Source: an uncultured Alphaproteobacteria bacterium (GTDB lineage: Bacteria; Pseudomonadota; Alphaproteobacteria; Acetobacterales; Acetobacteraceae). From it: DNA of 64,000 nt. The position numbers and the translations under genes were made by a program. The notes beneath the pieces are model-generated. The model saw only the letters and a program-made list of their open reading frames with translations. It was not told where the DNA came from and did no database searches. Below are positions 2,803 to 30,765 of this stretch, piece after piece. The stretch is from positions 16,944-80,943 of the forward strand of contig CAWADP010000017.1 in NCBI GenBank assembly GCA_963780805.1. Direction: 5' to 3'. Each line of letters opens with the position of its first letter. Position 1 is the first letter of the stretch.

Positions 2803-3440
2803 TCCGCTGGCGGTGGAGTAATACGAAGCACCCGAATGGCCGCTTTCTGTAGCGGCCTCCGCATCCGCCATTGCAAGTTGGCCACCCGCGGGCGGTGGCC
2901 GACCCGCCGTGAATGAAACGGTCATCGGAGCAGAAGGCTTCCCCAGCCCCCAACGGGCTTGGGCTGCGAAGCGGACCAAGGTTGGGAGAGGCGTCGAAAA
3001 GACGACATGTTTCGCCCTCGGCTCGCGGGCCGCTCCCGGGGAGAAACCTTGTTTCTCGCCAGGAGCGAGGCGACGAAGCAATCTTCTGCGTAAGTCGGCC
3101 ATGAGCGGTTACTCTGACCGGCGATTGGTTTGTCGTTTCGCTTCCGCTCAACGACATGTTGTGTAGATCTCACGTTCCAGCGCCCACACTGGCATGAGCG
3201 CCGGCGAACAACTGTGCTGAACAGGAACTAATCGCCCGATTCGAGTATTTTTATTCGGATTTTGGAAGATTTTATTGCGCGATCATTAACCGTGCGTACT
3301 TCTTTCGTCGCCTTAATATTCGCAATCCCCAAAAAGGGGCAAATGGATCAAATGAATGCGATTCCACTTGTTCCCCGTGCCCATCAGCGTCAAAAGTGAA
3401 CGCTGGTTTATAATGCTACGGCAACGGCCACGGGGGGTCC

Positions 3441-4541
3441 ATGCAACGGATCGTTACGGTTTTACTATGCCTACTGTCTGCCTCTCCCGCGCTGGCGCAG
3501 CGCCAACCACCGCCGCCTCAAGCCGCCACGGCGAACGAAGGCACCGTGGGCGTGATCACCGGCATGGAGGGCGGCACTTACGCACGCACCGGTTCAGATC
3601 TCACCTTGCTCGACGACGACCGGTTGCGCGTGCTTCCCGTGCTTGGGAAAGGTTCGTTGCAGAACCTGTCCGACATCCTCTACCTCAGAGGCATCGATGT
3701 CGGCTTCGTGCAGGCCGACGCCCTGACCTACGCCAAGGAGCACAACCTGTTCCCGGGCCTCGCCCAGAACATCCGCTACATCGCCAAATTGTACGATGAG
3801 GAAGTGCACGTCCTCGCCCGCAAGGATATCGCCCAGATCGCCGGTCTGAACGGTCAGCGCGTCAACGTCGATGTCGCCGGCAGCGGCTCGGCGATGACCG
3901 CGGAAATCCTCCTCGATGCCCTCGGCATCAAGGCGAAAATCGAGCACCAGAAACAGATCATCGGCTTGCATGAACTGGAGCAGGGCGACATCGCCGCCGT
4001 CATTCATGTCGGCGGGGCACCCATTCCGCTGTTCTCGGGGGTGCCCGGCAATCTTGGCCTGCATTTCCTGCCGATCGAACTCACGCCAACTCTGGCGCAG
4101 TCTTATCTGCCGGATCGGTTCACGGCCGACACATATCCCGCATTGGTTCCGTCGGGGGCGCCGGTATCGACGATCGCGGTCGGCGACGTGATGGCCGTGT
4201 TCGCATGGCAGTCTGGCTCGCCGCGGTACGCCAAGGTCGTCCGTTTCGTGAATGACTTCTTCAGCAAGTTCGATGAGTTCCGCCAACCGCCATGGGACCC
4301 CAAGTGGCGGGAGGTGAACCTGACGGCCGAGGTCCCCGGATGGACCCGGTTCCAACCCGCGCAGGACTGGCTGCAGCAGCATGTCGAAGCCGGCAACGCC
4401 AATGTCGCCACGCAAGTCCGGTTCAACCAATTTCTGTCGCAAACCAAGCCGGGGATGGACAACGCTCTGACCGATGCCGCGAAAACCGTCCTGTTCCAGC
4501 AATTCCTCGCCTGGGACCGGCAGCAACCGACGGCACATTGA
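3441..4541 (+). CDS. TAXI-family TRAP-type periplasmic solute-binding protein (orphan, no permease nearby)
   Basis: Signal peptide MQRIVTVLLCLLSASPALA. VGVITGMEGGTYARTGSDL motif and overall pattern of TAXI/NMT1-like binding proteins. Confidence 0.72.
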   Translation: MQRIVTVLLCLLSASPALAQRQPPPPQAATANEGTVGVITGMEGGTYARTGSDLTLLDDDRLRVLPVLGKGSLQNLSDILYLRGIDVGFVQADALTYAKEHNLFPGLAQNIRYIAKLYDEEVHVLARKDIAQIAGLNGQRVNVDVAGSGSAMTAEILLDALGIKAKIEHQKQIIGLHELEQGDIAAVIHVGGAPIPLFSGVPGNLGLHFLPIELTPTLAQSYLPDRFTADTYPALVPSGAPVSTIAVGDVMAVFAWQSGSPRYAKVVRFVNDFFSKFDEFRQPPWDPKWREVNLTAEVPGWTRFQPAQDWLQQHVEAGNANVATQVRFNQFLSQTKPGMDNALTDAAKTVLFQQFLAWDRQQPTAH

Positions 4542-19279: not shown

Positions 19280-19933
19280 TTGCCAGACATCTTCGATGAG
19301 GTAGCGGAAGACCTGCGCGCCGAACGCACGCAGATCCTGATGAAGCGCTACGCCCCGCTGATGATTGCTCTTGTCCTGGTAGTCGTCGCCGCCACGGCCG
19401 GCTGGCAGGTGTGGCGCTGGCGCCAGGCCCGGGAAGATGTGGCCGCCGGCCAGCATTACCTGTCCGCGATGGCGCTGGAATCGACGCCCGCCGCCGCCGC
19501 CGACCGCAAGGCACTGATCTCCGAGTTCGATGCCATCGCCAAGGCATCGCCGGAGGGCTACCGCACCCTCGCCCGACTGCAAGCCGCGGCATTCCAGGCC
19601 GAGAACGGCGACCTGCCTGCGGCGCTGGCCCTGTGGAACGCCGTCGCCACCGACGATGGCGCCGACCCCCTGCTGCGCGGCGCTGCCAACTTGCTCTGGT
19701 GCGAGCATCAGATCGACACCGGCGATCCCGGCATCCTGGCCGGGCGCCTGAAGGCTCTGGCCGAGCCCGGCAACGTCTGGCGCCCGCTGGCCGAGGAGCA
19801 ACTTGCCCTGCTCGACCTCCGCCAGGGCAAGACGGCGGCGGCCAAGGCCACGCTGACCAAGCTGACGCAGGACTTCACGGCGCCCGAGGGCGTGCGCGGG
19901 CGGGCGGCTGCCCTGCTGGCACAGCTCGGCTGA
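19280..19933 (+). CDS. YfgM-like membrane-anchored TPR protein
   Basis: TTG start. N-terminal TM (LMIALVLVVVAATAGWQVW) followed by a TPR-like Ala/Leu-rich domain. Conserved position upstream of bamB-der. Confidence 0.72.
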   Translation: MPDIFDEVAEDLRAERTQILMKRYAPLMIALVLVVVAATAGWQVWRWRQAREDVAAGQHYLSAMALESTPAAAADRKALISEFDAIAKASPEGYRTLARLQAAAFQAENGDLPAALALWNAVATDDGADPLLRGAANLLWCEHQIDTGDPGILAGRLKALAEPGNVWRPLAEEQLALLDLRQGKTAAAKATLTKLTQDFTAPEGVRGRAAALLAQLG

Positions 19934-19938
19934 GCGGC

Positions 19939-20052
19939 ATGCCAAGGGAAATGCCGCGGCAAACGCCCGGGGGAACGCCCAGGGGGACTCCCAGCGGAAC
20001 GCTCGGGGAAATGCCCAACGAAACGCCCAGGAACACGGCGAGGGAAACGGCG
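19939..20052. repeat. degenerate 10-12-nt periodic repeat (GGGAAATGCC / GGCAAACGCC / GGGAACGCCC ...)
   Basis: Read directly. Translates as MPREMPRQTPGGTPRGTPSGTLGEMPNETPRNTARETA in the bamB frame, ahead of the signal peptide. Confidence 0.6.
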
Positions 20053-21384
20053 TTGGAACCAACCCGACTGGCGCGGCGCGCGGCGCTGCTGGCACCGCTC
20101 GCCCTGACCGGCTGCGGGCTGTGGGACAAGTGGTTCGGCGAGGCTCCGAAGCCACCGCTGCCTGGGATGCGGGAGCCGGTGCTGCCGCCGGGCCGCAGCC
20201 TGATGATGGATCCTTCGGCCCCGAAGGTCGTGCTGCCGCCGCCGGTGCGCAACGCCGCCTGGCCGCAGGCGGGTGGCAATCCGGCGCACGACATGGACCA
20301 TCTCGCCGCCAATCCGGCGCTGGCACAGGCCTGGTCCGTCAGCATCGGCGAGGGCGGCGGCTACCGCCGCAAGATCCTGGCGCAGCCGGTGGTGGCGAAC
20401 GGGCTGGTTTACACCATGGATTCCGCCGGCACCGTGACCGCCTTCACGCTCGCCGCCGGCGCGCAGGTCTGGCGCACCGAGACCAGGGGCAAAGATGTCA
20501 GCAGCAGCAACGTCGGCGGCGGACTGGGCGTGGGCGGTGGCATCCTGTATGCCGTGAACGGCCTGGGCGACCTTGTGGCGCTCGACGCCGCCAAGGGGAC
20601 TGAGCATTGGCGCACCTATCTCGGCGCGCCCGGGCGCTCTGCCCCGACCATCGTGGAAGGCCGTCTGTTCTTGACCACCATCGAGGACAAGCTGCTGGCC
20701 GTGGCCGCCACGGACGGGCACGTGATCTGGACCTTCCAGGGTGCCTCGGTGCAGCCCGCCGTGCTTGGCCGCCCGGCCCCGGCCTTTGCCAACGGGCTGG
20801 TCGTCGCCGGCTTCAGCTCCGGCGAGCTGGCCTGCCTGCGCGCGGAGAACGGCGCCGTGTTGTGGAGCGACAGCCTGGGCGGCTACGCCGGGGGCGCCGC
20901 CGGCGCGGACTTCGCGGCGATCCGCGGCCGCCCGGCGATCAGCGCGGGGCGGGTGGTAGCCACCGGCATGGGCGGGCTGATGCTCTGCCTGGACCTGCCG
21001 ACCGGCCGCCGGCTGTGGGAACTTCAGGTAAGCAGTGAGAACAGCCCGTGGGTGGCGGGGGAGTGGGTATTCATGGTGTCGCTGTCGCAGCAGATGGCGG
21101 CGCTGACCATGGCCGGGGGCAACGTCGCCTGGATGGCCCAGCTGCCGCGCTGGGTGAATGTGCAGAAGTCCACCAACCCGATCACCTGGTACGGGCCGAC
21201 CCTGCTGGGCGACCGGCTGGTGGTGGCCGGCACCGACAAGGAGGCGCTGTCGGTCAGCCCCTATACCGGTGCGATCCTGGGACGGCAGACGCTGCCCAGC
21301 GCGGCCTCGCCGCTGGAGCCGGTGGTGGCGGACGGCACGCTGCTGATGATCTCCGATGACGGGAAGCTGTTGGCGCTGCGCTAA
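19939..21384 (+). CDS. bamB: outer membrane protein assembly factor BamB (PQQ-like beta-propeller lipoprotein)
   Basis: Lipobox LALTGCG, then repeated WR/W-containing propeller blades (GLVYTMDSAGTVTAF, GILYAVNGLGDLVAL, GRLFLTTIEDKLLAV...). First ATG is 19939. An in-frame TTG at 20053 gives a canonical short N-terminus. Confidence 0.88.
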   Translation: MPREMPRQTPGGTPRGTPSGTLGEMPNETPRNTARETALEPTRLARRAALLAPLALTGCGLWDKWFGEAPKPPLPGMREPVLPPGRSLMMDPSAPKVVLPPPVRNAAWPQAGGNPAHDMDHLAANPALAQAWSVSIGEGGGYRRKILAQPVVANGLVYTMDSAGTVTAFTLAAGAQVWRTETRGKDVSSSNVGGGLGVGGGILYAVNGLGDLVALDAAKGTEHWRTYLGAPGRSAPTIVEGRLFLTTIEDKLLAVAATDGHVIWTFQGASVQPAVLGRPAPAFANGLVVAGFSSGELACLRAENGAVLWSDSLGGYAGGAAGADFAAIRGRPAISAGRVVATGMGGLMLCLDLPTGRRLWELQVSSENSPWVAGEWVFMVSLSQQMAALTMAGGNVAWMAQLPRWVNVQKSTNPITWYGPTLLGDRLVVAGTDKEALSVSPYTGAILGRQTLPSAASPLEPVVADGTLLMISDDGKLLALR

Positions 21385-23030: not shown

Positions 23031-24129
23031 ATGTCTGAGCAACGAACTCCTTCTCGAGAAGCATCGATTGTCTTGCAAGCTCCACCATGCGACGTGAGAC
23101 CGGCGCTTTGCCTGGGTGTCAGCGTCTCAACCGTGGGGAGCGAACACCTTCTCGTCGCCGACGATCTTGAGATCTGTGTCGAGGGGTTGCCCGACGCTAT
23201 GGCGCGCCGGGTCGTGTCTCGCTTCAATGGCCGCGAGACCGCCACCTCCATCGCGGCGGCAGCTGGATTACCCGTGGCGCAGGTGATCGCCATTGTGACA
23301 AGGCTTATGGCAGCCGGCGTCGTGGTGGACCTGCGCGGCGGCAGGGAGTCGGATCTGACACCGGATGCCTTCATTGCCCTTTGTCAGCGCTCGTATTCAA
23401 TGTGGAAAACGCGCCTCTTCGGTCATCCGCTGTGGCGTGGATTGAACACGGGAGAGGCGGCGCCATCCCAGTTCATAGGCTGGCTGCTGGAGAGTTACCA
23501 CTTCGCGGAAGGCGTGAACCTGCGCTTGCCGTTGGCGATCGCGCATTGCCACCAGCGCGAAATCCGCGATCTGCTGTCTCAGCACTATGCCGAAGAGTAT
23601 GATCATGAAAGGTTCTTCTTGTCGGCGCTGGCGGAACTGGGCGTCGAACCGGAGATTGTCATAGCGGCGCGGCCCTTGCCTGGTACCCGGGCCATCCTGA
23701 ACCATATGCGCGACTGTGCTCGCACGGATCCGCTGCACTACGCGGTGTGCGGCGGCTTCCTTGAAGCGACCGGGACTGATCGCACGCTTGGGCGCGTATT
23801 CATCGCAAACCTCGAACGGCACTATGCACCGGAAAATCCGCTGGTTGTACCAGCCACTGATCGATCACGCAGCCCTCGACGACCTGTACGGACACCGTGG
23901 GCTGCTTGCCGCGCTCTGCCGCTGCGTACCCGAGCTGCCATGGGAGCGTGCATCGGCCGCGCTTGGCTCCTGCGCCTTGTTCGTCGAGACGCTGGAGCTT
24001 TGGTCGACGGACATCATGATGACGTACGCGCAGCCAGCACTTACGCCTGACCGGAGCCCCTGGCATTACCGTAGAATGGTTGCCGCGAGAGACACCGGGC
24101 ACGTTGGACTGGCGGGTGAGCGGCCATGA
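23031..24129 (+). pseudogene. RRE(PqqD)-like winged-helix domain fused to heme-oxygenase-like iron-containing redox enzyme domain, paralog 1; frame broken by an apparent 1-nt insertion near 23847
   Basis: Frame A 23031..23846 (...GWLLESYHF...HYAEEYDHERFF...LERHYAPENPLV) continues colinearly with paralog 2 only in frame B from 23848 (YQPLIDHAALDDLYGH...). Frame B ends in an ATGA overlap with the next gene at 24126-24129. Confidence 0.7.
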
Positions 24130-25145
24130 CCCCCCATTTGCATTCGGCCAGTCGTCCACTGCTCAGCGCTCGCGCACGCACGCTGACGTCGGACAGCGAA
24201 CTCGTGGTCGATACGCGGGACATGGAGTTGACCTTCAGTGGGAGAAGCGCGGCCCTGCTTGCTCGCGTGCTCGACCACCTGGACGGCCGGCGCCGGATCG
24301 ACGAGATCAGTGCACAACTGGATCTAAGCGAGAACGAACTGCGGAAAACGCTCCAGGTGCTGGTGGATGAAGACGTCATGTTCGACGCCGGCGCCGTTTT
24401 CGACGCGCGCTCTTCGCAGGCGTTCCTGGACGCGTATTTCGCCGAGTGCCGGTTCTTGAGCAACGAGATCTTCGCCCAACCGTTCTGGGAGACATTGCTG
24501 TCGGGGCGCGCCGGGCGCAACCTCGTGCTCGGCTGGGGCATCGAGTTCCACCACTTCGTCGACGCTGCCAACGAGCATATGGCGGTCGCGGTCGCGCAGT
24601 GCCGGGATGGCGCGCGCACGCGCGCCTGGCTCGCAAAACATTACGTCGAAGAGCGCGACCACGGGTCGATTTTTCTCGACGGACTGGCAGGCACCGGCCT
24701 TGATCGTGAGCTGGTCCGCAGGGCGCCACCGCTGCCATCGACCAGGGCATTGATAAACTATCTGACCGAGCTGGCATCGGTGGACACGATCGCATACGCG
24801 GGAACATTCGGGGTCATGCAAGCCAATCGCGAGGCGATGTCCCGAGACGCGCTAGAGCGATTGTTCACGTTTCTTGCCGGTCAATACCCATTCGCGGCAC
24901 GATTGTTCGATGCCTTCCGCGAGCACGCGCTGATCGATGCCGACCTGCAGCATCAACATCTGATTCTGGAGGAGATGTTGGAAGACGGCAAAGCATTGCC
25001 ACCTGACGTCGTCGCCCGGCCGATCAATGCGGCGCGAAGCGTCACGGAGCATTTCATCATGTTTTTCGAAGGTATTCATCAATACTATAGTCTTGCCGAG
25101 GCCGAGATGCCGCGCTGTGCATTCGACGTTCGTCTTGTCCGATGA
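24126..25145 (+). CDS. RRE(PqqD)-like winged-helix domain fused to heme-oxygenase-like iron-containing redox enzyme domain, paralog 2
   Basis: 339 aa. N-terminus ELVVDTRDMELTFSGRSAALLARVLDHLDGRRRIDEISAQLDLSENELRKTLQVLVDEDVM. C-terminal helical domain with GWGIEFHHF, HYVEERDHGSIF and FREHALIDAD. Clearly homologous to 23031-24129. Confidence 0.75.
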   Translation: MTPHLHSASRPLLSARARTLTSDSELVVDTRDMELTFSGRSAALLARVLDHLDGRRRIDEISAQLDLSENELRKTLQVLVDEDVMFDAGAVFDARSSQAFLDAYFAECRFLSNEIFAQPFWETLLSGRAGRNLVLGWGIEFHHFVDAANEHMAVAVAQCRDGARTRAWLAKHYVEERDHGSIFLDGLAGTGLDRELVRRAPPLPSTRALINYLTELASVDTIAYAGTFGVMQANREAMSRDALERLFTFLAGQYPFAARLFDAFREHALIDADLQHQHLILEEMLEDGKALPPDVVARPINAARSVTEHFIMFFEGIHQYYSLAEAEMPRCAFDVRLVR

Positions 25146-25163: not shown

Positions 25164-26492
25164 ATGGTCGAAGCCGTGGCATACGCTGAGCGATTCAGCG
25201 GGTCCGCCGCGATGTCCCGGCGCGCCGAGCGCGTGGTCGCCGGCGGGACGCAACACGACAGTTGGCGGCTGCAGCCTTTCCCGGTGTACTTCAGCGAAGC
25301 GCGCGGCCCATTCAAGTGGGACATCGACGGGCATCGCCTGGTGGACTGCTGGATGGGGCACGGCGCACTGTTGTTCGGCCACGGTTATCGACCGGTTGTC
25401 GACGCAGTCGCCCGTCAACTGGTCCGCGGTACCCATCTCGGGGGGGCACACGATCTTGAAGTGCGTTGGGCGGAGCTGGTCTGTGAACTGATCCCCTCTG
25501 CGGAGCGTGTCCGCTTTACCTCATCCGGCACCGAAGCGACCCAGCTCGCGCTCCGGGTCGCCCGAGCATTCACCGGCCGTAACCACGTCGTGAAACTCGA
25601 TGGTCACTTCCACGGCTGGCACGACGAGGCGCTCGCGCATTTTGTGGAACCAGCTTCGGCCGGTCTCAATGCCGGCTCGCTCGACGGTGTCAGTATTGGC
25701 GATCCGTGGTCTGTGGCGTCCATCGCCCGGCTTCTCGCCGAGGAGCCCACGGCTGCCGTCATACTTGAACCGGGAGGCGGTGGCAGTGGTGCGTTGCCGT
25801 GGAGCCCGGACTTCCTTCGAGAGCTGAGGCAAGCAACGCAGGAGCACGGCACACTGCTGATCTTCGACGAAGTCGTCAGTGGATTCCGCTATAGCTCCGG
25901 TGGTGTGCAGCAACTCTGTGGTGTGACACCCGATCTTACGGTGCTTGGGAAGATCCTGGCTGGCGGGCTTCCGGGGGCTGCGGTCGCCGGCCGAGCCGAT
26001 GTCATGGCAGTGTTCGGCGCGGGAACAACAGGCGCGGGCGGACCGGCAAAGGTCGTGCACACCGGCACATTCAACGCAAACCCGCTGTCTGCCGCTGCCG
26101 GCATAGCGGCGCTCGAGCGGGTTGGGGATGGCACAGCGCAGGAGGCCGCAGCTTCGGCGGCCGAGACGCTCGCCCGGCTGGTCAATGAGGCGGCTCGCGC
26201 TAACGACGTCGATGTCTGCTTATATACCCAAAGTTCGATCTTCCACGTGCTGATAGGCGCGCGACGTGCAGGATCTCCACTTGGACCGTCTGCGTCGGCG
26301 ATGACACTTTACAAAGCGCATGCGAACTCATATAACATTCTTAGAAGAGCGCTGCTGGTTGAGGGGGTTGACTGCCATCCGCTGCACGGTTGGCTTTCAG
26401 CTGCGCACGAAACCTCAGCCGTGCATGAGGCGGCGGCCGCGTTCGATCGCGCGTTTCGCCAACTCCACCGGTCCACGGAATTCGCGCTATAA
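25164..26492 (+). CDS. class-III PLP-dependent enzyme, glutamate-1-semialdehyde 2,1-aminomutase-like
   Basis: RVVAGGTQHD..., SSGTEATQLALRVARAFTGR, IFDEVVSGFR, and PLP-lysine context DLTVLGKILAGGLPGAAV as in HemL-type enzymes. 442 aa. Confidence 0.88.
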   Translation: MVEAVAYAERFSGSAAMSRRAERVVAGGTQHDSWRLQPFPVYFSEARGPFKWDIDGHRLVDCWMGHGALLFGHGYRPVVDAVARQLVRGTHLGGAHDLEVRWAELVCELIPSAERVRFTSSGTEATQLALRVARAFTGRNHVVKLDGHFHGWHDEALAHFVEPASAGLNAGSLDGVSIGDPWSVASIARLLAEEPTAAVILEPGGGGSGALPWSPDFLRELRQATQEHGTLLIFDEVVSGFRYSSGGVQQLCGVTPDLTVLGKILAGGLPGAAVAGRADVMAVFGAGTTGAGGPAKVVHTGTFNANPLSAAAGIAALERVGDGTAQEAAASAAETLARLVNEAARANDVDVCLYTQSSIFHVLIGARRAGSPLGPSASAMTLYKAHANSYNILRRALLVEGVDCHPLHGWLSAAHETSAVHEAAAAFDRAFRQLHRSTEFAL

Positions 26493-26605: not shown

Positions 26606-26782
26606 ATGGCGGATACTAAGGCCCTAGACCCCCACGAAGTCGTCGTGACTGTCTCAAAGGGTGAGGCCAAGCACGTGAAGATCGTCGAGCGCGACACGCC
26701 GGAAAGCGCCGAGATCACCGTCAAAGTCAGCCGGAAGCGGCCAGGCGGGTCGTTGCCGTTACTGGGATTGATGTTGAAATAG
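26606..26782 (+). CDS. 58-aa small ORF, candidate precursor/scaffold peptide
   Basis: GAGGAGGA (26594-26601) lies 4 nt before the ATG. Product MADTKALDPHEVVVTVSKGEAKHVKIVERDTPESAEITVKVSRKRPGGSLPLLGLMLK. Sits between the PLP and radical SAM genes on the same strand. No homology evidence available. Confidence 0.45.
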   Translation: MADTKALDPHEVVVTVSKGEAKHVKIVERDTPESAEITVKVSRKRPGGSLPLLGLMLK

Positions 26783-27194
26783 TCCTTGCCCGCCGAGACA
26801 AAAGCGACCGAGATCGACGACCCGATCGAGCTTTGACAAGATGAAGCCGGTTGGCAAGATCCGGTTCGAATCCCTGTGCGGTGCGGTGTCAAAGCGGTCA
26901 CTGTGCCGGGCAGCGGTCGGTGCACTGGGGTTCAGGACCGGGTCCCAGATAGCGTTCATTCGCTGGTCGGTTCGCAACGTGTCGGATATTCAGATAACGT
27001 GAGTCGAGAACGGAGGGGCGCACCGTCGCCCCTTCGCGCCGTACAGGGCCGGGTGGGCGATAGAAGCCGACACCGTGCAAGTGTCTGCATACCAGTTTCA
27101 CGAGCCGGTGTTCTGCGACGCGGATATGGTGTCCACAGCGCCCGCTGGCTATCCTGGAATGCGGCTGAACCACCTGAAATCAACGGGGGAAGCG

Positions 27195-28994
27195 ATGGCC
27201 AACTCGCGAAAGACGTTCGTGCTGATCTACAACGATCAGTGGGGCCGCGTTCGATCGCATTCCTCGAATCGAGCTACCGGCTTGCGTCCGCGGAAGTTCA
27301 CGCCGCTTCACGAATTTCTCGGGCTGGATGAGGAAGAATTTTCTTCACTCAGATATGGCGGTTCAGAGCACCCGATTTGGAGCCCTCGCCCGATATTCGC
27401 CAATGCCACCTTCCTGACCACGGCGGCGGTGATGACAATTCTCGACCGTCACAGAATTCCAACCCACGCCTATGGGGAGAGCAGCCTGCTCGACGATCGG
27501 GTGCAGCTCGATGGGCTTACTTCAGAGAACGTCGTTGCCGTTGGTATTTCAACCACGTTCATCTTCGATGACAAGTCACTGGATTTCCTGGTACGTAGGG
27601 CCAAACAGCTCATACCCGGCGTGCCGGTCATCGTTGGTGGGGCGGGGATCACGCTCAATCCGGACTGGTTTGAGGCAACGGACGCCGATTTCTGTATCGT
27701 GGGGGACGCCGAGTTTGCTCTTCCAGAGCTCCTGAACCGTCTGGAAGCCGGCCACGACTTCACAGATATACCGAATCTTACGTGGCGCGTTCGATCTTCA
27801 ATTCCCGTGTCCGATGCCAGGTCTGATGCCAGTCATGCGGTTCGACGAAACCCACGGGACAACAGCATTAAGCTTGACGCAATTCCCACGCCTCGGTGGG
27901 ATTTGACGACCGAGGATGGCGAATGGCCCGAGAGCATTTTTTACGAATCCCTGCGCGGATGCCCATTCAAATGCAAGTTCTGCAGCTACCCGCAGCAATC
28001 GCCGGTCTGGCGCGTGAAGAGTGCGGAGCGAATGGCGGAGGAATTTGCGTATTATGCGTCGCACGGCGTGCGCTACATCATGTGCCTTGATTCAACGATG
28101 CTTACGCCCATCGCGCGTATGCGTAAATTCACCCAGCTTCTCATCGAGCTTAATGCTCCGATTTTGTGGGGCTGCTGGGCGCATCCGAGCCAAGTTCAAG
28201 ATCCTGAACTCTGCCACATGTTGTATCGGTCAGGATGCAGGGTGGTATCAATGGGCATCGAATCCGGAAGCGAACAAATTCTTGATAATATGGCTAAACA
28301 TATCTCTACGCAAAAAGCAGTTCGTGCCATTGACAATCTAAGGCAGGCGGGGCTGTATGTCCACGCGAACTATATCATCGGCTTTCCCGGTGAGACGCAG
28401 GAGACAGCCAGGGAAACCATCAATTTCATGAAACGCACGCAGGCCGATTCATACACCCTGCAGGCGTTCCAGGTGCGCGATAAGCTGATTCCGATCCTGG
28501 CGGAGGCCGCATCCTATCAGCTTAGCATTCATATGGACGAAGAAGGAAATTACCAAGGGTGGACACACGCGGAGATGAATAGCGAGGAAGCCGAGCAACT
28601 GGTCAGAAACGCACAACGGGAGTTGATTGCTTCCTGCCCGAGCGTCATTTCATTTGCCATGCTCGCCTCTGGCACCCATTATGCTCCCGGGCTTAGCGAA
28701 GATACCAGCGATATTGCCTATCGCCGGAGCGCGATTACTCCAATTGTAAAAGAGTATGAACAATTCCTCTTCGCAACACCCAGTTTTGGACTGATGGGAA
28801 ACGGTCATAAATCCTATAAGGTCGCGAACAAGCATCGGCAGATTGGCCGAGGCCTGTTAAGGGAAGAGCTATCGCGTGGCCGAATTATCTCCGGCGCCAC
28901 ACACCAGCGTGTCCAGGCGCGGTCCACGATGGCGGGGAAATCGATAGCGCCTGGGGATTCCGCCAGCAAAGCGGTTTTTCGACACACCGATTAG
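27195..28994 (+). CDS. B12-binding-domain radical SAM enzyme (class B)
   Basis: GGGGGA RBS. N-terminal cobalamin-binding-type Rossmann segment (VVAVGISTTF...PVIVGGAGITLNPDWF..DFCIVGDAEFALPELL). Radical SAM cluster motif ESLRGCPFKCKFCSYP (CX3CX2C). GIESGS and GFPGET motifs. An alternative ATG at 27159 exists. Confidence 0.9.
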   Translation: MANSRKTFVLIYNDQWGRVRSHSSNRATGLRPRKFTPLHEFLGLDEEEFSSLRYGGSEHPIWSPRPIFANATFLTTAAVMTILDRHRIPTHAYGESSLLDDRVQLDGLTSENVVAVGISTTFIFDDKSLDFLVRRAKQLIPGVPVIVGGAGITLNPDWFEATDADFCIVGDAEFALPELLNRLEAGHDFTDIPNLTWRVRSSIPVSDARSDASHAVRRNPRDNSIKLDAIPTPRWDLTTEDGEWPESIFYESLRGCPFKCKFCSYPQQSPVWRVKSAERMAEEFAYYASHGVRYIMCLDSTMLTPIARMRKFTQLLIELNAPILWGCWAHPSQVQDPELCHMLYRSGCRVVSMGIESGSEQILDNMAKHISTQKAVRAIDNLRQAGLYVHANYIIGFPGETQETARETINFMKRTQADSYTLQAFQVRDKLIPILAEAASYQLSIHMDEEGNYQGWTHAEMNSEEAEQLVRNAQRELIASCPSVISFAMLASGTHYAPGLSEDTSDIAYRRSAITPIVKEYEQFLFATPSFGLMGNGHKSYKVANKHRQIGRGLLREELSRGRIISGATHQRVQARSTMAGKSIAPGDSASKAVFRHTD

Positions 28995-29170: not shown

Positions 29171-30668
29171 TCAGCCGCGGGCAAACAACGCCGCGCCACT
29201 GCCGGCGATACGGCCGAAGGTGACCCCGGCCACCAGTCCCGTGCCGCTGCCGTAATTATGATAATAAAGGCCACCGACGATCTCCCCGGCGGCGAACAGT
29301 CCGGCAATCGGCGTGCCGCAGGTGTCTTCGACCTGCGCGGCGGTGGACACCTTGAGGCCGCCGAAAGTGAACGTCACGCCCGCCGTCACGCCGTAAGCAT
29401 GATATGGCGGCGTATCCAGCTTCTGCGCCCAATTGGTCTTGTCCACGGTGAGGCCAAACGTGCGCAGCCCGTCATGGATGTTCGGGTTGAACGCCACGTC
29501 CGGCCGCGGCGCATCGTTATAGGCGTGCAGCGTCGCCAGCACCGCCTGCGGATCGACCCCCGTCAGCTTGGGCGCCAGCACCTCCAGCGTATTCGCGGTC
29601 TCCTTGGTGATGCGGGCGATGCGATACTCCTCGCGCAGCAGGTGGTTGATCTTCGAGTCGAAGATCTGCCAGCCGAACAAGCCGGGCTGCTTCATCACCT
29701 CATGGCCGTACTTGGCGTAGGTGTAGGAATGGAAGTCGGCACCTTCATCCAGGAACCGCTCCCCCCGCGCGTTCACCAGCACGCCGAACGGATAGTTGTG
29801 CTTCTGGAACCGGTCGCCGATGGTCAGATCGCCGAACGGCGGGGCGTTCATGTCCCACTGCACCGCATGTGCGCCGGACCAATGTCCGGCGACCGCGGCG
29901 CCAATGTCGATCGCCATGCGGTGGCCGTAGCCCTGGTTGAAGCGGGTGCCGCGCACCTTGGCCAGGTCCCAGTTTGGTCCCAGGTAGCGTGCCCGCATCT
30001 CGGCGTTGGATTCGAAGCCGCCGCAGGCCAGCACCACCGACTTCGCGCGCAGATCGAAGCCGCGGCCGTCGGTGGCGCACGCGCACGCCCTGGATGCGCG
30101 CATCGTCGTGCAGCAGCGCATAGGCGGTGGTGTCGTACAGCACCGGCACGCCGGCCTTCTCCAGCGCCGCGTGCAGCGTCGGCACGAGTTGCGCGCCCCC
30201 GCCCAGCAGGTGGCACGCCAGCCCGCCCCAGAACTTGAATTTCCCCCCGACGTTGAACGCCTGCCGCCCGAGCGCCGGCTGGAACCGCACGCCATGCTGG
30301 CGCAGCCACAGCGCCGAGGCGTAGCTGTTGGAGATCAGCACCTCGGTCAGGTCCGGATCGCAGCGGTATTCGGTCAGCCGGCCCATATCGTCGAAATACT
30401 GGCCCTCGGTGTAGGTGCCGAAATCGATAGTCGAAAGGTCCAGGTCCTTGATGTCCGGCGCCAGCGCGAGGAGGTCGTCCACGCCGGCGTAGACGAAACG
30501 AAACGCTCCCCCGGTAAAGGCCGAGTTGCCGCCGCGTGCTTCCTGTGGCGCGGTTTCCAGCATCGCCACCGAGGCACCCGCCTCATGCGCCGCCAGCGCC
30601 GCGTTGGCCGCCGCGTTGCCCGCGCCGATCACGAGCACGTCCACTTGCGTATAGGTCGTTGGAGTCAT
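29171..30668 (-). pseudogene. tcuA: FAD-dependent tricarballylate dehydrogenase (TcuA)-like gene, frame broken near 30077
   Basis: N-part VDVLVIGAGNAAANAALAAHEAG...NSAFTGGAFRF...ARIQGVRV in one frame. C-part ATDGRGFDLRAKSVVLACGGFESNAEMRARYLGPNWDLAKVRGTRFNQG...TFTFGGL...LFAAGEIVGGLYYHNY in another. The junction is consistent with a 1-nt insertion in a gcgcgtgcgcc context. Confidence 0.8.
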
Positions 30669-30765
30669 GGCGCTGGATCCTGGCGAAACGAGCATCAGGA
30701 CCGTGTGGGCCGCGCTGCCGCCTGTCAATCGTTGGACCGGGGGAATGCTGGTGTTCGACAGCAAG

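Follow-up and report, generated by a model that had tools for sequence, protein, structure and literature searches.

What do two adjacent, related genes at positions 23031–25145 of a 64,000-nucleotide stretch of DNA from an uncultured alphaproteobacterium (the whole stretch being called the window below) encode, and on what substrate would their products act? An earlier note on this DNA, made from the sequence alone, had read the two genes, here A and B, as tandem paralogs that each join a PqqD-like domain to a heme-oxygenase-like iron-enzyme domain. In public resources (JGI, UniRef) such proteins are named "PQQ biosynthesis protein C" or "thiaminase", with others left as "hypothetical"; for A and B these labels are misleading. 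The reading that we favor, to which we give a probability of roughly 0.65, is that the two genes form the core of an uncharacterized RiPP-type cluster, in which a pair of diiron oxidases guided by RiPP recognition elements (RREs) would modify the C-terminal residue of a peptide.

Tandem paralogs and the reading frame of gene A

Two homologous open reading frames are indeed present in this region, and every peptide string quoted in the earlier note could be located in the window sequence. Over 280 aa the proteins are 30% identical (BLASTP E 7e-33), which excludes a chance match and identifies A and B as true paralogs. The coordinates of both genes, their domains and the neighboring genes discussed below are collected in Table 1.

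As sequenced, gene A lacks a single continuous open frame. The frame that opens with the ATG at 23031 passes into meaningless out-of-frame sequence and ends at 24050, and the DHAALD motif and the ATGA overlap with B (24126–24129) sit in the +1 frame, within an ORF at 23716–24129. The earlier reading, which took A as a single open frame, had crossed this frameshift unnoticed. The break is caused by one extra C at 23850/23851, where the window reads GTTGTACCAGCC and five related assemblies (L033–L037) read GTTGTA-CAGCC. Removal of the extra C gave a 365-aa A protein in which 1 residue differs from the unbroken copy of one of these assemblies (L036). A run of four A residues at about 23833 was ruled out as the indel site, as the run is conserved in the five relatives, and programmed +1 frameshifting was rejected, the frame being continuous in all relatives. 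Since the extra C is absent from the five related assemblies, and assemblies of the same ENA series hold other broken genes, the frameshift is most likely an assembly error. The window matched ENA metagenome contigs at 99.7–99.9%.

The ATGA overlap, which had been cited as coupling the two genes, is real in the repaired frame of A but absent from the frame as sequenced. Among 22 loci examined, an NTGA overlap forms the A–B junction in 8, and in the others a start codon in the B frame lies no more than 17 nt from the A stop. At the loci examined, A and B lie in tight linkage, and some genomes encode them as a single polypeptide: single-ORF fusions were seen at three loci (L005, L027, and L029), and many two-domain A–B matches of 570–716 aa were recovered among the 1.84 billion representatives searched. 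Such natural fusion proteins lend support to the earlier suggestion that the two proteins form a heteromer or act sequentially.

Table 1. Features of the A–B locus, in window coordinates
Feature	Position	Strand	Basis
Paralog A: predicted RRE and canonical HDO domain, 365 aa once repaired	23031..24129	+	Pfam, relatives, MboA ligand alignment
RRE-like N-domain of A, about residues 23–100 (predicted)	23097..23330	+	BLASTP alignment to B N-domain
CC dinucleotide with single-base insertion shifting the frame of gene A	23850..23851	+	Alignment with L033, L034, L036; BLASTN gap count L033–L037
Paralog B: predicted RRE and non-canonical HDO domain, 339 aa	24126..25145	+	Pfam, AlphaFold2 model, fold search
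Predicted RRE (PqqD-like winged-helix) of B, residues 11–93: four β-strands, three helices, one strand	24156..24404	+	AlphaFold2 model, Foldseek
Heme-oxygenase-like helical bundle of B, residues about 97–339	24414..25142	+	Profile search, AlphaFold2 model, fold search
Class-III (GSA-aminomutase-like) PLP aminotransferase	25164..26492	+	Directly after B in 23/25 loci with Lys-ending precursors
Candidate precursor, 58 aa: MADTKALDPHEVVVTVSKGEAKHVKIVERDTPESAEITVKVSRKRPGGSLPLLGLMLK	26606..26782	+	Family HMM E 4e-23; 58-aa gene called in L035–L037
B12-binding radical SAM (class B, methyltransferase-like)	27159..28994	+	Start uncertain: 27159 or 27195

Domain assignment and predicted metal ligands

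For the N-terminal domain of B, the AlphaFold2 model (pLDDT 93.7) places strands at residues 11–13, 18–21, 25–29, and 34–38, followed by helices at 39–51, 58–64, and 69–81. The best Foldseek match of this model in the PDB was the RRE of PbtF (8t19; E 1.4e-4, TM 0.67/0.73), with further matches to LynD, TruD, TbiB1, ThcOx, McbB, PqqD (5sxy), MccB, and a lasso B1 protein. Apart from GATOR1/NPRL3 winged-helix entries, the first 25 PDB matches were all RRE domains, and several of the RRE structures matched had been solved with a leader peptide bound. By sequence, the best matches were generic winged helix-turn-helix (wHTH) regulators; a profile search against the PDB reached PbtF at E 0.041 and PqqD at no better than E 0.31. 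PF05402, the Pfam model for PqqD, whose scan the earlier note had proposed, matched neither A nor B at E ≤ 0.01. The strands-then-three-helices fold, together with top structural matches that are almost all RRE/PqqD-like, bears out the PqqD/RRE-like assignment, and the prediction that the N-terminal domain of B is an RRE is supported at the level of modeled structure; for A, the prediction follows from its BLASTP alignment with the domain of B.

For the C-terminal domain, the Pfam family "iron-containing redox enzyme" (PF14518) passed its gathering cut-off of 28.9 bits in both proteins (35.1 bits for A and 39.3 bits for B). The AlphaFold2 model of B (pLDDT 93.1) matched CADD, PqqC, UndA, and BesC in Foldseek, with TenA also among the fold matches, and these results agree with a seven-helix heme-oxygenase-like fold, as suggested previously for an iron-enzyme domain. 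The closest solved structure overall was the structural-genomics entry 3DDE (Sden_3740, "DUF with heme oxygenase-like fold"; profile E 3e-11, TM 0.81 normalized to target), which shares an E-x-x-H motif upstream of the core as well as the core-helix-1 EExxH but has no RRE domain. The sole NCBIfam match for A or B was a weak one of B to the CADD family, at 16.7 bits against a cut-off of 200.

The putative ligands of A (E189, H192, E245, H279, D283, and H288) are invariant in 20–21 A-type proteins and align one-to-one with E86, H89, E143, H172, D176, and H181 of the mangotoxin acetylenase MboA, the H-x3-D-x4-H spacing included; the UndA ligand motifs also align with those of the A-type proteins. 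By this alignment A would carry a complete 3-His/3-carboxylate set, consisting of ExxH on core helix 1, E on helix 2, and H-x3-D-x2-4-H on helix 3. Of the motif pairs put forward in the earlier note as resembling metal ligands, EEYDH/EERDH corresponds to the core-helix-1 ExxH, and DHAALD/EHALID with its following His to the core-helix-3 motif. The x4 position of that His, previously regarded as a departure from the canonical spacing, is no anomaly because it is identical in MboA. The third pair, ESYHF/EFHHF, falls outside the six canonical positions, and its His varies among A-type proteins. The core-helix-2 Glu (E245 of A, in FLEAT) had been overlooked.

In B, residues E140, H143, E176, H179, H267, D271, and H276 are invariant. 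The position of the core-helix-2 Glu is occupied by Gln232 in the window and by Q, H, or R across 31 B-type sequences, leaving B without a complete 3-His/3-carboxylate set. Because one canonical ligand is missing, B may be inactive; the additional invariant E140 and H143 might compensate for the missing ligand. The ligand comparisons support a prediction of A as a canonical diiron heme-oxygenase-like oxidase (HDO) and of B as a non-canonical HDO.

Candidate precursor peptide and gene neighborhood

The small gene downstream of the aminotransferase gene is preceded by a GAGGAGG Shine–Dalgarno sequence 6 nt upstream, and its product has the C-terminal end LLGLMLK. Neither this candidate precursor nor the biosynthetic context had been noticed in the earlier reading. 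Using a regular expression and an HMM, ORFs of the same family, 43–61 aa in length, were found to adjoin A–B in at least 25 loci, with HMM E-values from 2e-26 to 1e-5 across the family. The N-terminus is variable in these peptides, and conservation is seen in a motif E-I-T-V-x-V-S-K-K-R and in the C-terminus, (V/L)(L/V)G(V/L)(I/M)(V/L)K. A search of the peptides against Pfam gave no match, and one against NCBIfam gave a single weak and irrelevant match (HPE1 effector family, E 0.062) for a Xenorhabdus peptide; the 288-bp gap upstream of A contained no precursor-like ORF. A short, syntenic candidate precursor with a conserved motif and C-terminus, as expected of a RiPP cluster, is present.

The A–B tandem was found in 29 genome loci spread over five phyla (Acidobacteriota, Myxococcota, Alpha/Beta/Gammaproteobacteria, and Cyanobacteria), and the recurring module is precursor–A–B–aminotransferase, usually with an aldehyde dehydrogenase. 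Precursors ending in Lys occur at 25 loci; 20 of the 23 that have the aminotransferase directly after B also have the aldehyde dehydrogenase. The dehydrogenase, present in most of the other clusters, is replaced by a B12-radical-SAM enzyme in 3 of the Lys-type loci (the window, L001, and L007). At the 4 loci where the precursor ends in PRGVLAE, AMP-binding enzymes replace the aminotransferase; the set of tailoring enzymes thus goes with the residue at which the precursor ends.

The closest solved structure to the aminotransferase of the window is D-phenylglycine aminotransferase (2cy8, E 1e-75), and the enzyme is most similar to enzymes that aminate carbonyls (GSAM as well as D-phenylglycine aminotransferase, and the GntE and daptide models) rather than to Lys/ornithine ω-aminotransferases. 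The B12-radical-SAM protein scored 200 bits with the PhpK family model TIGR04479, under its cut-off of 600. In several clusters the exporter is of the MFS type and not a peptidase-ABC transporter, and the clusters have no dedicated leader protease in common. No pqq genes (pqqA/B/E) were found near A–B, the neighbors being the aminotransferase and the radical-SAM or aldehyde dehydrogenase genes. Scans for Rfam families, tRNAs, and promoters or terminators returned nothing useful.

Proposed pathway, related systems and alternative readings

In the pathway that we propose, A and B would pair as a heterodimer, and their RREs would dock the leader of the 58-aa precursor. By analogy with the Leu-Ala-Arg tripeptide on MboA, the free carboxylate of the C-terminal Lys would ligate Fe1 of the canonical diiron site of A. 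O2-dependent C–H activation would then alter the side chain of this residue, desaturation or hydroxylation being most likely and oxidative decarboxylation possible. B, without the core-helix-2 Glu, would perform a second, different oxidation or would assist as a partner that holds the peptide or regulates. The class-III aminotransferase would subsequently work on the same C-terminal residue, with the aldehyde dehydrogenase next in most clusters. The simplest series would run from the Lys ε-amine to an aldehyde and on to a carboxylate, a proposal weakened by the similarity of the aminotransferase to carbonyl-aminating enzymes; alternatively, a carbonyl made by the HDOs could be aminated by the aminotransferase. 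In the window, the B12-radical-SAM enzyme would substitute for the dehydrogenase and would probably methylate. The end product could be the peptide in tailored form or a modified amino acid set free from it.

[quoted passage not shown] The sequence similarity to A is marginal, and the chemistry is likened by analogy. Unlike A and B, MboA has no RRE, its tripeptide substrate is non-ribosomal and comes from ATP-grasp ligases, and its redox partner is MboB, whereas the proposed partner of A is a paralogous subunit. A heme-oxygenase-like enzyme in a ribosomal-peptide pathway, likened here by description, is VarO of the thiovarsolin RiPP cluster, which genetics implicates in Arg side-chain dehydrogenation (PMC6511847). 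That pathway, in contrast, is an actinomycete YcaO/TfuA thioamide pathway for which neither an RRE fusion nor a paralog pair is reported, and VarO may act only after proteolysis.

The daptide pathway resembles the proposed one in that RRE-guided oxidation of a ribosomal C-terminal residue is followed by a class-III aminotransferase, the set consisting of a DUF-RRE protein (MpaB), a dehydrogenase (MpaC), and an aminotransferase (MpaD) (bioRxiv 10.1101/2023.03.08.531785). There, however, an NAD(P)-dependent alcohol dehydrogenase performs the oxidation, the DUF protein carries its RRE at the C-terminal end, and the last residue is always Thr. Membership of the daptides was rejected for the present cluster, whose precursor ends in Lys, which has no such alcohol dehydrogenase or MpaB-like gene, and for which the model NF041821 scored 104 bits against 450. 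A heme-oxygenase-like domain and a PqqD/RRE domain are joined in one protein in PqqCD, the PqqC-PqqD fusion of Methylobacterium extorquens (5VRD/5SXY), both halves of which were among the fold matches; the domain order is reversed there, with PqqC before PqqD. PqqC works without a cofactor, on a small-molecule intermediate that has already been released. In MbnBC and TglHI, multinuclear non-heme iron oxidases (MNIOs) are brought to a ribosomal peptide by an RRE-type partner in a heteromeric complex, but these DUF692 proteins are TIM barrels, a fold unrelated to that of A and B, and their RRE is on a separate, non-homologous partner.

Of the alternatives to be weighed, the nearest is a variant of the main reading with another end product, in which the peptide is a scaffold: the C-terminal Lys would be oxidized and transaminated on the carrier and then released by cleavage, for export as a free non-proteinogenic amino acid or antimetabolite, the peptide perhaps being recycled as in the logic of 3-thiaglutamate (pearlin) and PQQ biosynthesis. 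The restriction of conservation to the last 5–7 residues and one leader motif, the tailoring enzymes that follow the last residue only, and the MFS exporters, with no conserved leader protease, are all consistent with this. Against it, the clusters share neither a releasing peptidase nor a peptide-aminoacyl-tRNA ligase, and conservation extends to the hydrophobic G-V-I-V ahead of the Lys, which would suit a part of the product or of the recognition site. We regard this route as unlikely, with perhaps one chance in four. A free-metabolite pathway is much less probable. In such a pathway A and B would, like BesC and HrmI, have a free amino acid as substrate, for example lysine, with the wHTH domain serving dimerization or regulation and the small ORF not being a substrate. 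An aminotransferase with an aldehyde dehydrogenase is a classic pair of ω-amino-acid catabolism. Free amino or fatty acids are the substrates of most characterized HDOs (PMC13108848). Against this, the N-terminal domain matches RREs specifically in structure, and the small ORF keeps its synteny over five phyla, has a conserved C-terminus, and covaries with the tailoring enzymes.

Least probable of all, and only slightly below the free-metabolite pathway, is the reading implied by the database names, namely cofactor-less quinone-forming oxidases of the PqqC/PqqD type, thiamin-salvage hydrolases, or wHTH-TenA transcription factors. Apart from the JGI and UniRef names, it can draw on Pfam PF03070 (TENA/THI-4/PQQC), which is over its cut-off of 22 in both proteins (37.6 and 23.6), on PqqC and TenA as fold matches, and on the wHTH regulators matched by the N-terminal domain. 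PF03070 is, however, a superfamily-level model, the NCBIfam PqqC and TenA models gave no match at E ≤ 0.01, and pqqA/B/E are absent nearby. PqqC and TenA are not known to have the complete His/carboxylate diiron ligand set, which is invariant in A. For membership in either family, that superfamily-level Pfam model was the sole backing.

In the favored reading, an RRE-guided oxidase pair acting on the C-terminus of a peptide, the combination of precursor, A, and B suggests that enzyme-tailored ribosomal peptides of a family not yet described occur in many phyla. A limited literature search found no description of the RRE-HDO pair family; a paper on nitrilobacillin was unrelated. More speculatively, and at clearly less than even odds, the clusters may define a new RiPP class, in which a leader-guided heterodimer of heme-oxygenase-like diiron oxidases, one canonical and one without the core-helix-2 Glu, would perform chemistry unseen on ribosomal peptides at the C-terminal Lys (e.g. 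alkene or alkyne formation, N-oxygenation, or C–C cleavage). The aminotransferase with the dehydrogenase or B12-radical-SAM enzyme would then yield a short peptide bearing a warhead or a released antimetabolite, and a sister branch would work on a C-terminal Glu via adenylating enzymes.

The HDO superfamily is young and versatile, with characterized members that form alkene, alkyne, nitrile, nitro, N-nitroso, and azetidine groups, nearly all of them on free small molecules. If the favored reading is true, the HDO-RRE fusion puts such chemistry under leader-peptide control, where the substrate is gene-encoded and programmable, and the A–B pair is a natural experiment on a ligand-deficient paralogous subunit partnering a diiron enzyme. 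With a precursor of 43–61 aa and two to four enzymes, the family is a directly testable system, and it occurs in culturable Xenorhabdus, Serratia inhibens, Pseudomonas mosselii, Chromobacterium sphagni, Sorangium, and Sphingomonas.

Domain composition and predicted metal ligands of the paralogs

Repaired A and B could be aligned over 280 residues at 30% identity (E 7e-33), and both passed the Pfam gathering threshold of PF14518 (Haem_oxygenas_2, "iron-containing redox enzyme") as well as that of PF03070, a superfamily-level model. The AlphaFold2 model of B (31 homologues, pLDDT 93.1) has four short strands, three helices and one strand in residues 11–87, followed by a helical bundle in residues 97–339; as a whole it resembles the heme-oxygenase-like folds of 3dde, CADD, PqqC, TenA, UndA and BesC. 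By sequence alone the N-domain looks like a generic winged helix. When it was modelled in isolation (pLDDT 93.7), the fold matches were almost all RiPP recognition elements (RREs): LynD, TruD, TbiB1 (leader bound), ThcOx, McbB, PqqD and MccB, with the PbtF RRE at E 1.4e-4 and TM 0.67/0.73. The earlier note had described a PqqD/RRE-like domain joined to a heme-oxygenase-like iron-enzyme domain; the modelled fold favours the former and PF14518, together with the UndA, BesC and CADD folds, the latter. The Pfam scan that it proposed found Haem_oxygenas_2 in both proteins and PqqD in neither.

The best solved structure for the A-type catalytic core profile was MboA (E 0.0015), whose diiron ligands are E86, H89, E143, H172, D176 and H181 (crystal structure paper, PMC13185094). 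In the profile alignment these pair exactly with A residues E189, H192, E245, H279, D283 and H288, which are invariant in 20–21 A-type proteins; the ExxH, E and H-x3-D motifs of UndA align with the core too. B retains E176, H179, H267, D271 and H276, with Gln232 replacing E245 of A; 31 B-type proteins have Q, H or R there. [quoted passage not shown] The x4 spacing of the last His, which had seemed uncanonical, is that of MboA. Among the ligand motifs suggested earlier, EEYDH/EERDH and DHAALD/EHALID fall at MboA ligand positions, whereas ESYHF/EFHHF sits on an earlier helix, its Glu invariant in both paralogs and its His conserved in B only.

Reading frame of A and its linkage to B

Features of the window and their coordinates
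Feature	Position	Strand	Remark
bamB, der			Housekeeping; upstream of A
BamB ORF	19411-21384	+	657 aa from GTG start
A, repaired	23031-24129		365 aa
A, ORF as listed	23031-24050	+	339 aa
A, +1-frame ORF	23716-24129		DHAALD motif, ATGA overlap
B	24126-25145	+	339 aa
Class-III aminotransferase	25164-26492		Directly after B
Candidate precursor ORF	26606-26782		58 aa; strong Shine-Dalgarno
B12-binding radical SAM	about 27159-28994		After precursor
TcuA-like FAD-dependent dehydrogenase	29171-30761	-	Two overlapping ORFs, different frames
TcuA-like N-terminal FAD-binding part	29745-30761	-	ORF
TcuA-like remainder	29171-30295	-	Matches TcuA residues 171-462
Low-G+C segment	26001-30000		0.59
Low-G+C segment	48001-52000		0.555-0.59

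The final ~70 residues of the ORF listed for A are low-complexity junk. An exact-sequence look-up of B recovered the locus from three ENA metagenome assemblies (L035–L037, 99.7–99.9% identity), and two further contigs (L033 and L034) carry it at ~97%. At the site of the frameshift all five relatives read GTTGTA-CAGCC, vs GTTGTACCAGCC in the window; removal of one C at 23850/23851 gave an A protein differing from the L036 copy by 1 residue, the TGA stop of which overlaps the ATG of B. The tandem paralogs are both real but A is frameshifted as sequenced, so that the earlier observation is confirmed in part; the ATGA overlap described there exists in the repaired frame but not in that of the listed ORF. 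The TcuA-like gene 4 kb downstream is likewise split over two frames, a second frameshift <6 kb from the first that fits either assembly indel errors or decay of the region. With the extra C missing from the relatives, and other genes broken in the same assembly series (Der of L035, 244 aa; aminotransferase of L035, 388 aa; B of L001, split), an assembly error is the probable cause, although A could instead be a true pseudogene.

A scan that took a single genome for each species gave 29 loci encoding B-type relatives, with A immediately 5′ at nearly all and fused to B as a single ORF in three. At 8 of 22 junctions an NTGA overlap was seen, the others having B-frame start codons ≤17 nt from the A stop. 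Among 1.84 billion representative proteins there were just 820 relatives at E ≤ 1e-3 (172 at E ≤ 1e-30), many of them 570–716-aa proteins with two such domains. Adjacency, fusions, two-domain proteins and tight junctions all argue that A and B would form a heteromer, one of the two possibilities raised in the earlier note.

Among the matches of ~570–630 aa (e.g. proteins P0147, P0151 and P0153), a group of roughly 600-aa proteins has two matched stretches each. The best of these aligns solely with the heme-oxygenase-like portion of the query (~100–330) and lies in the C-terminal half of the protein; such proteins may be tandem heme-oxygenase-like proteins with a different N-terminal arrangement. 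Five loci (L005, L009, L011, L013 and L021) hold a third, B-like RRE–HDO paralog a few kb past the aminotransferase/dehydrogenase genes, preceded in L005 by a precursor copy. The BamB ORF compares with 409–457 aa called in related assemblies, and its long N-terminal extension is probably untranslated.

Candidate precursor peptides and tailoring genes

The small ORFs beside A–B have in common a motif resembling E(I/L)TVxVSKKR and the C-terminus (V/L)(L/V)G(V/L)(I/M)(V/L)K, which is RRALGALVK in the Xenorhabdus, Serratia and Robbsia peptides. The window peptide, MADTK…SRKRPGGSLPLLGLMLK, matched the family HMM at E 4e-23, and gene callers predicted the precursor in L035–L037 and L001; Pfam had no model for these peptides and NCBIfam none that was meaningful. 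Where the precursor ends in Lys (25 loci), an aminotransferase directly follows B in 23, joined by an aldehyde dehydrogenase in 20 of the 23; in three (the window, L001 and L007) a B12-binding radical SAM gene takes the place of the latter. Four loci with precursors ending …PRGVLAE instead carry AMP-binding enzymes. Tailoring enzymes thus track the last residue of the precursor, a covariation that, of all the computational evidence, speaks most strongly for a pathway acting at the peptide's C-terminal residue.

The sister branch (L026, L028, L030 and L031, from Myxococcota and Cellvibrionaceae MAGs) has the motif EF(K/R)(V/L)T(V/I)(R/K)KLE and ends …(V/K)(R/K)PRGVLAE, with adenylating enzymes after A–B replacing the aminotransferase/aldehyde dehydrogenase pair. 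At L024, two tandem precursor genes (3434–3848, +) lie 3′ of A–B, each ending in a duplicated core …CKGIMLADYCRGIMLAD that contains Cys residues and has Asp at the C-terminus; no aminotransferase is present at this locus, and the next large ORF resembles a MacB/FtsX-type permease by sequence. The 79%-identical cluster of L001 stands in another context, adjoining IS66-family transposase genes. Beside it (L001, 104–4858) are genes for an S8 peptidase and a radical SAM/SPASM protein as well as a small ORF that weakly matches DUF1843; they may represent another RiPP-like module, or else accessory genes that the window lacks. Window G+C (~66%) is 0.63–0.72 outside the two low segments, the first of which spans the precursor and radical SAM genes; both may have been acquired horizontally.

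Proposed pathway and known systems

In MboA, Leu-Ala-Arg is bound via its C-terminal carboxylate and Cβ–Cγ of the C-terminal Arg is desaturated (PMC13185094); carboxylate ligation of Fe1 is common among HDO substrates. For VarO, also heme-oxygenase-like, genetics implicates Arg side-chain dehydrogenation in ribosomal thiovarsolins (PMC6511847). By analogy, the RREs of A and B would dock the precursor leader, the carboxylate of the C-terminal Lys would bind Fe1 of A, and the pair would then oxidize the side chain of that residue. We put our confidence in this general mechanism at about 0.65; that in any specific chemistry is low. The simplest reading has the aminotransferase and aldehyde dehydrogenase converting the ε-amine via aldehyde to acid. 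Since the aminotransferase is closest to D-phenylglycine aminotransferase (E 1e-75), then to GSAM and GntE-like enzymes, all carbonyl-aminating, a live alternative with a parallel in daptides is that it aminates a carbonyl made by the HDO pair. The B12-binding radical SAM enzyme would be methyltransferase-like, judged by family.

The proposed oxidation at the C-terminal residue resembles MboA and VarO in chemistry, and delivery of the oxidant by an RRE resembles MbnBC, TglHI and daptide MpaBC (bioRxiv 10.1101/2023.03.08.531785) in logic; the A–B system is a member of none of these. The tests for daptide and PqqC membership failed, the sole NCBIfam match being a weak CADD-family match of B far under the cut-off. 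For TenA, both proteins pass PF03070, which spans TENA, THI-4 and PQQC together, and no NCBIfam TenA model matched. We rate the system a probable RiPP-type pathway with an RRE-fused, heterodimeric HDO as core enzyme. The overall interpretation of the earlier note holds with a corrected ligand map; the conserved uncharacterized biosynthetic cluster is a larger finding than the paralog pair. The literature searched contained no paper describing an RRE–HDO fusion or the precursor family, and on ribosomal peptides the thiovarsolin study is the one work cited in a 2026 review of HDOs (PMC13108848). Publicly, A/B-type proteins are named "PqqC", "thiaminase" or "hypothetical".
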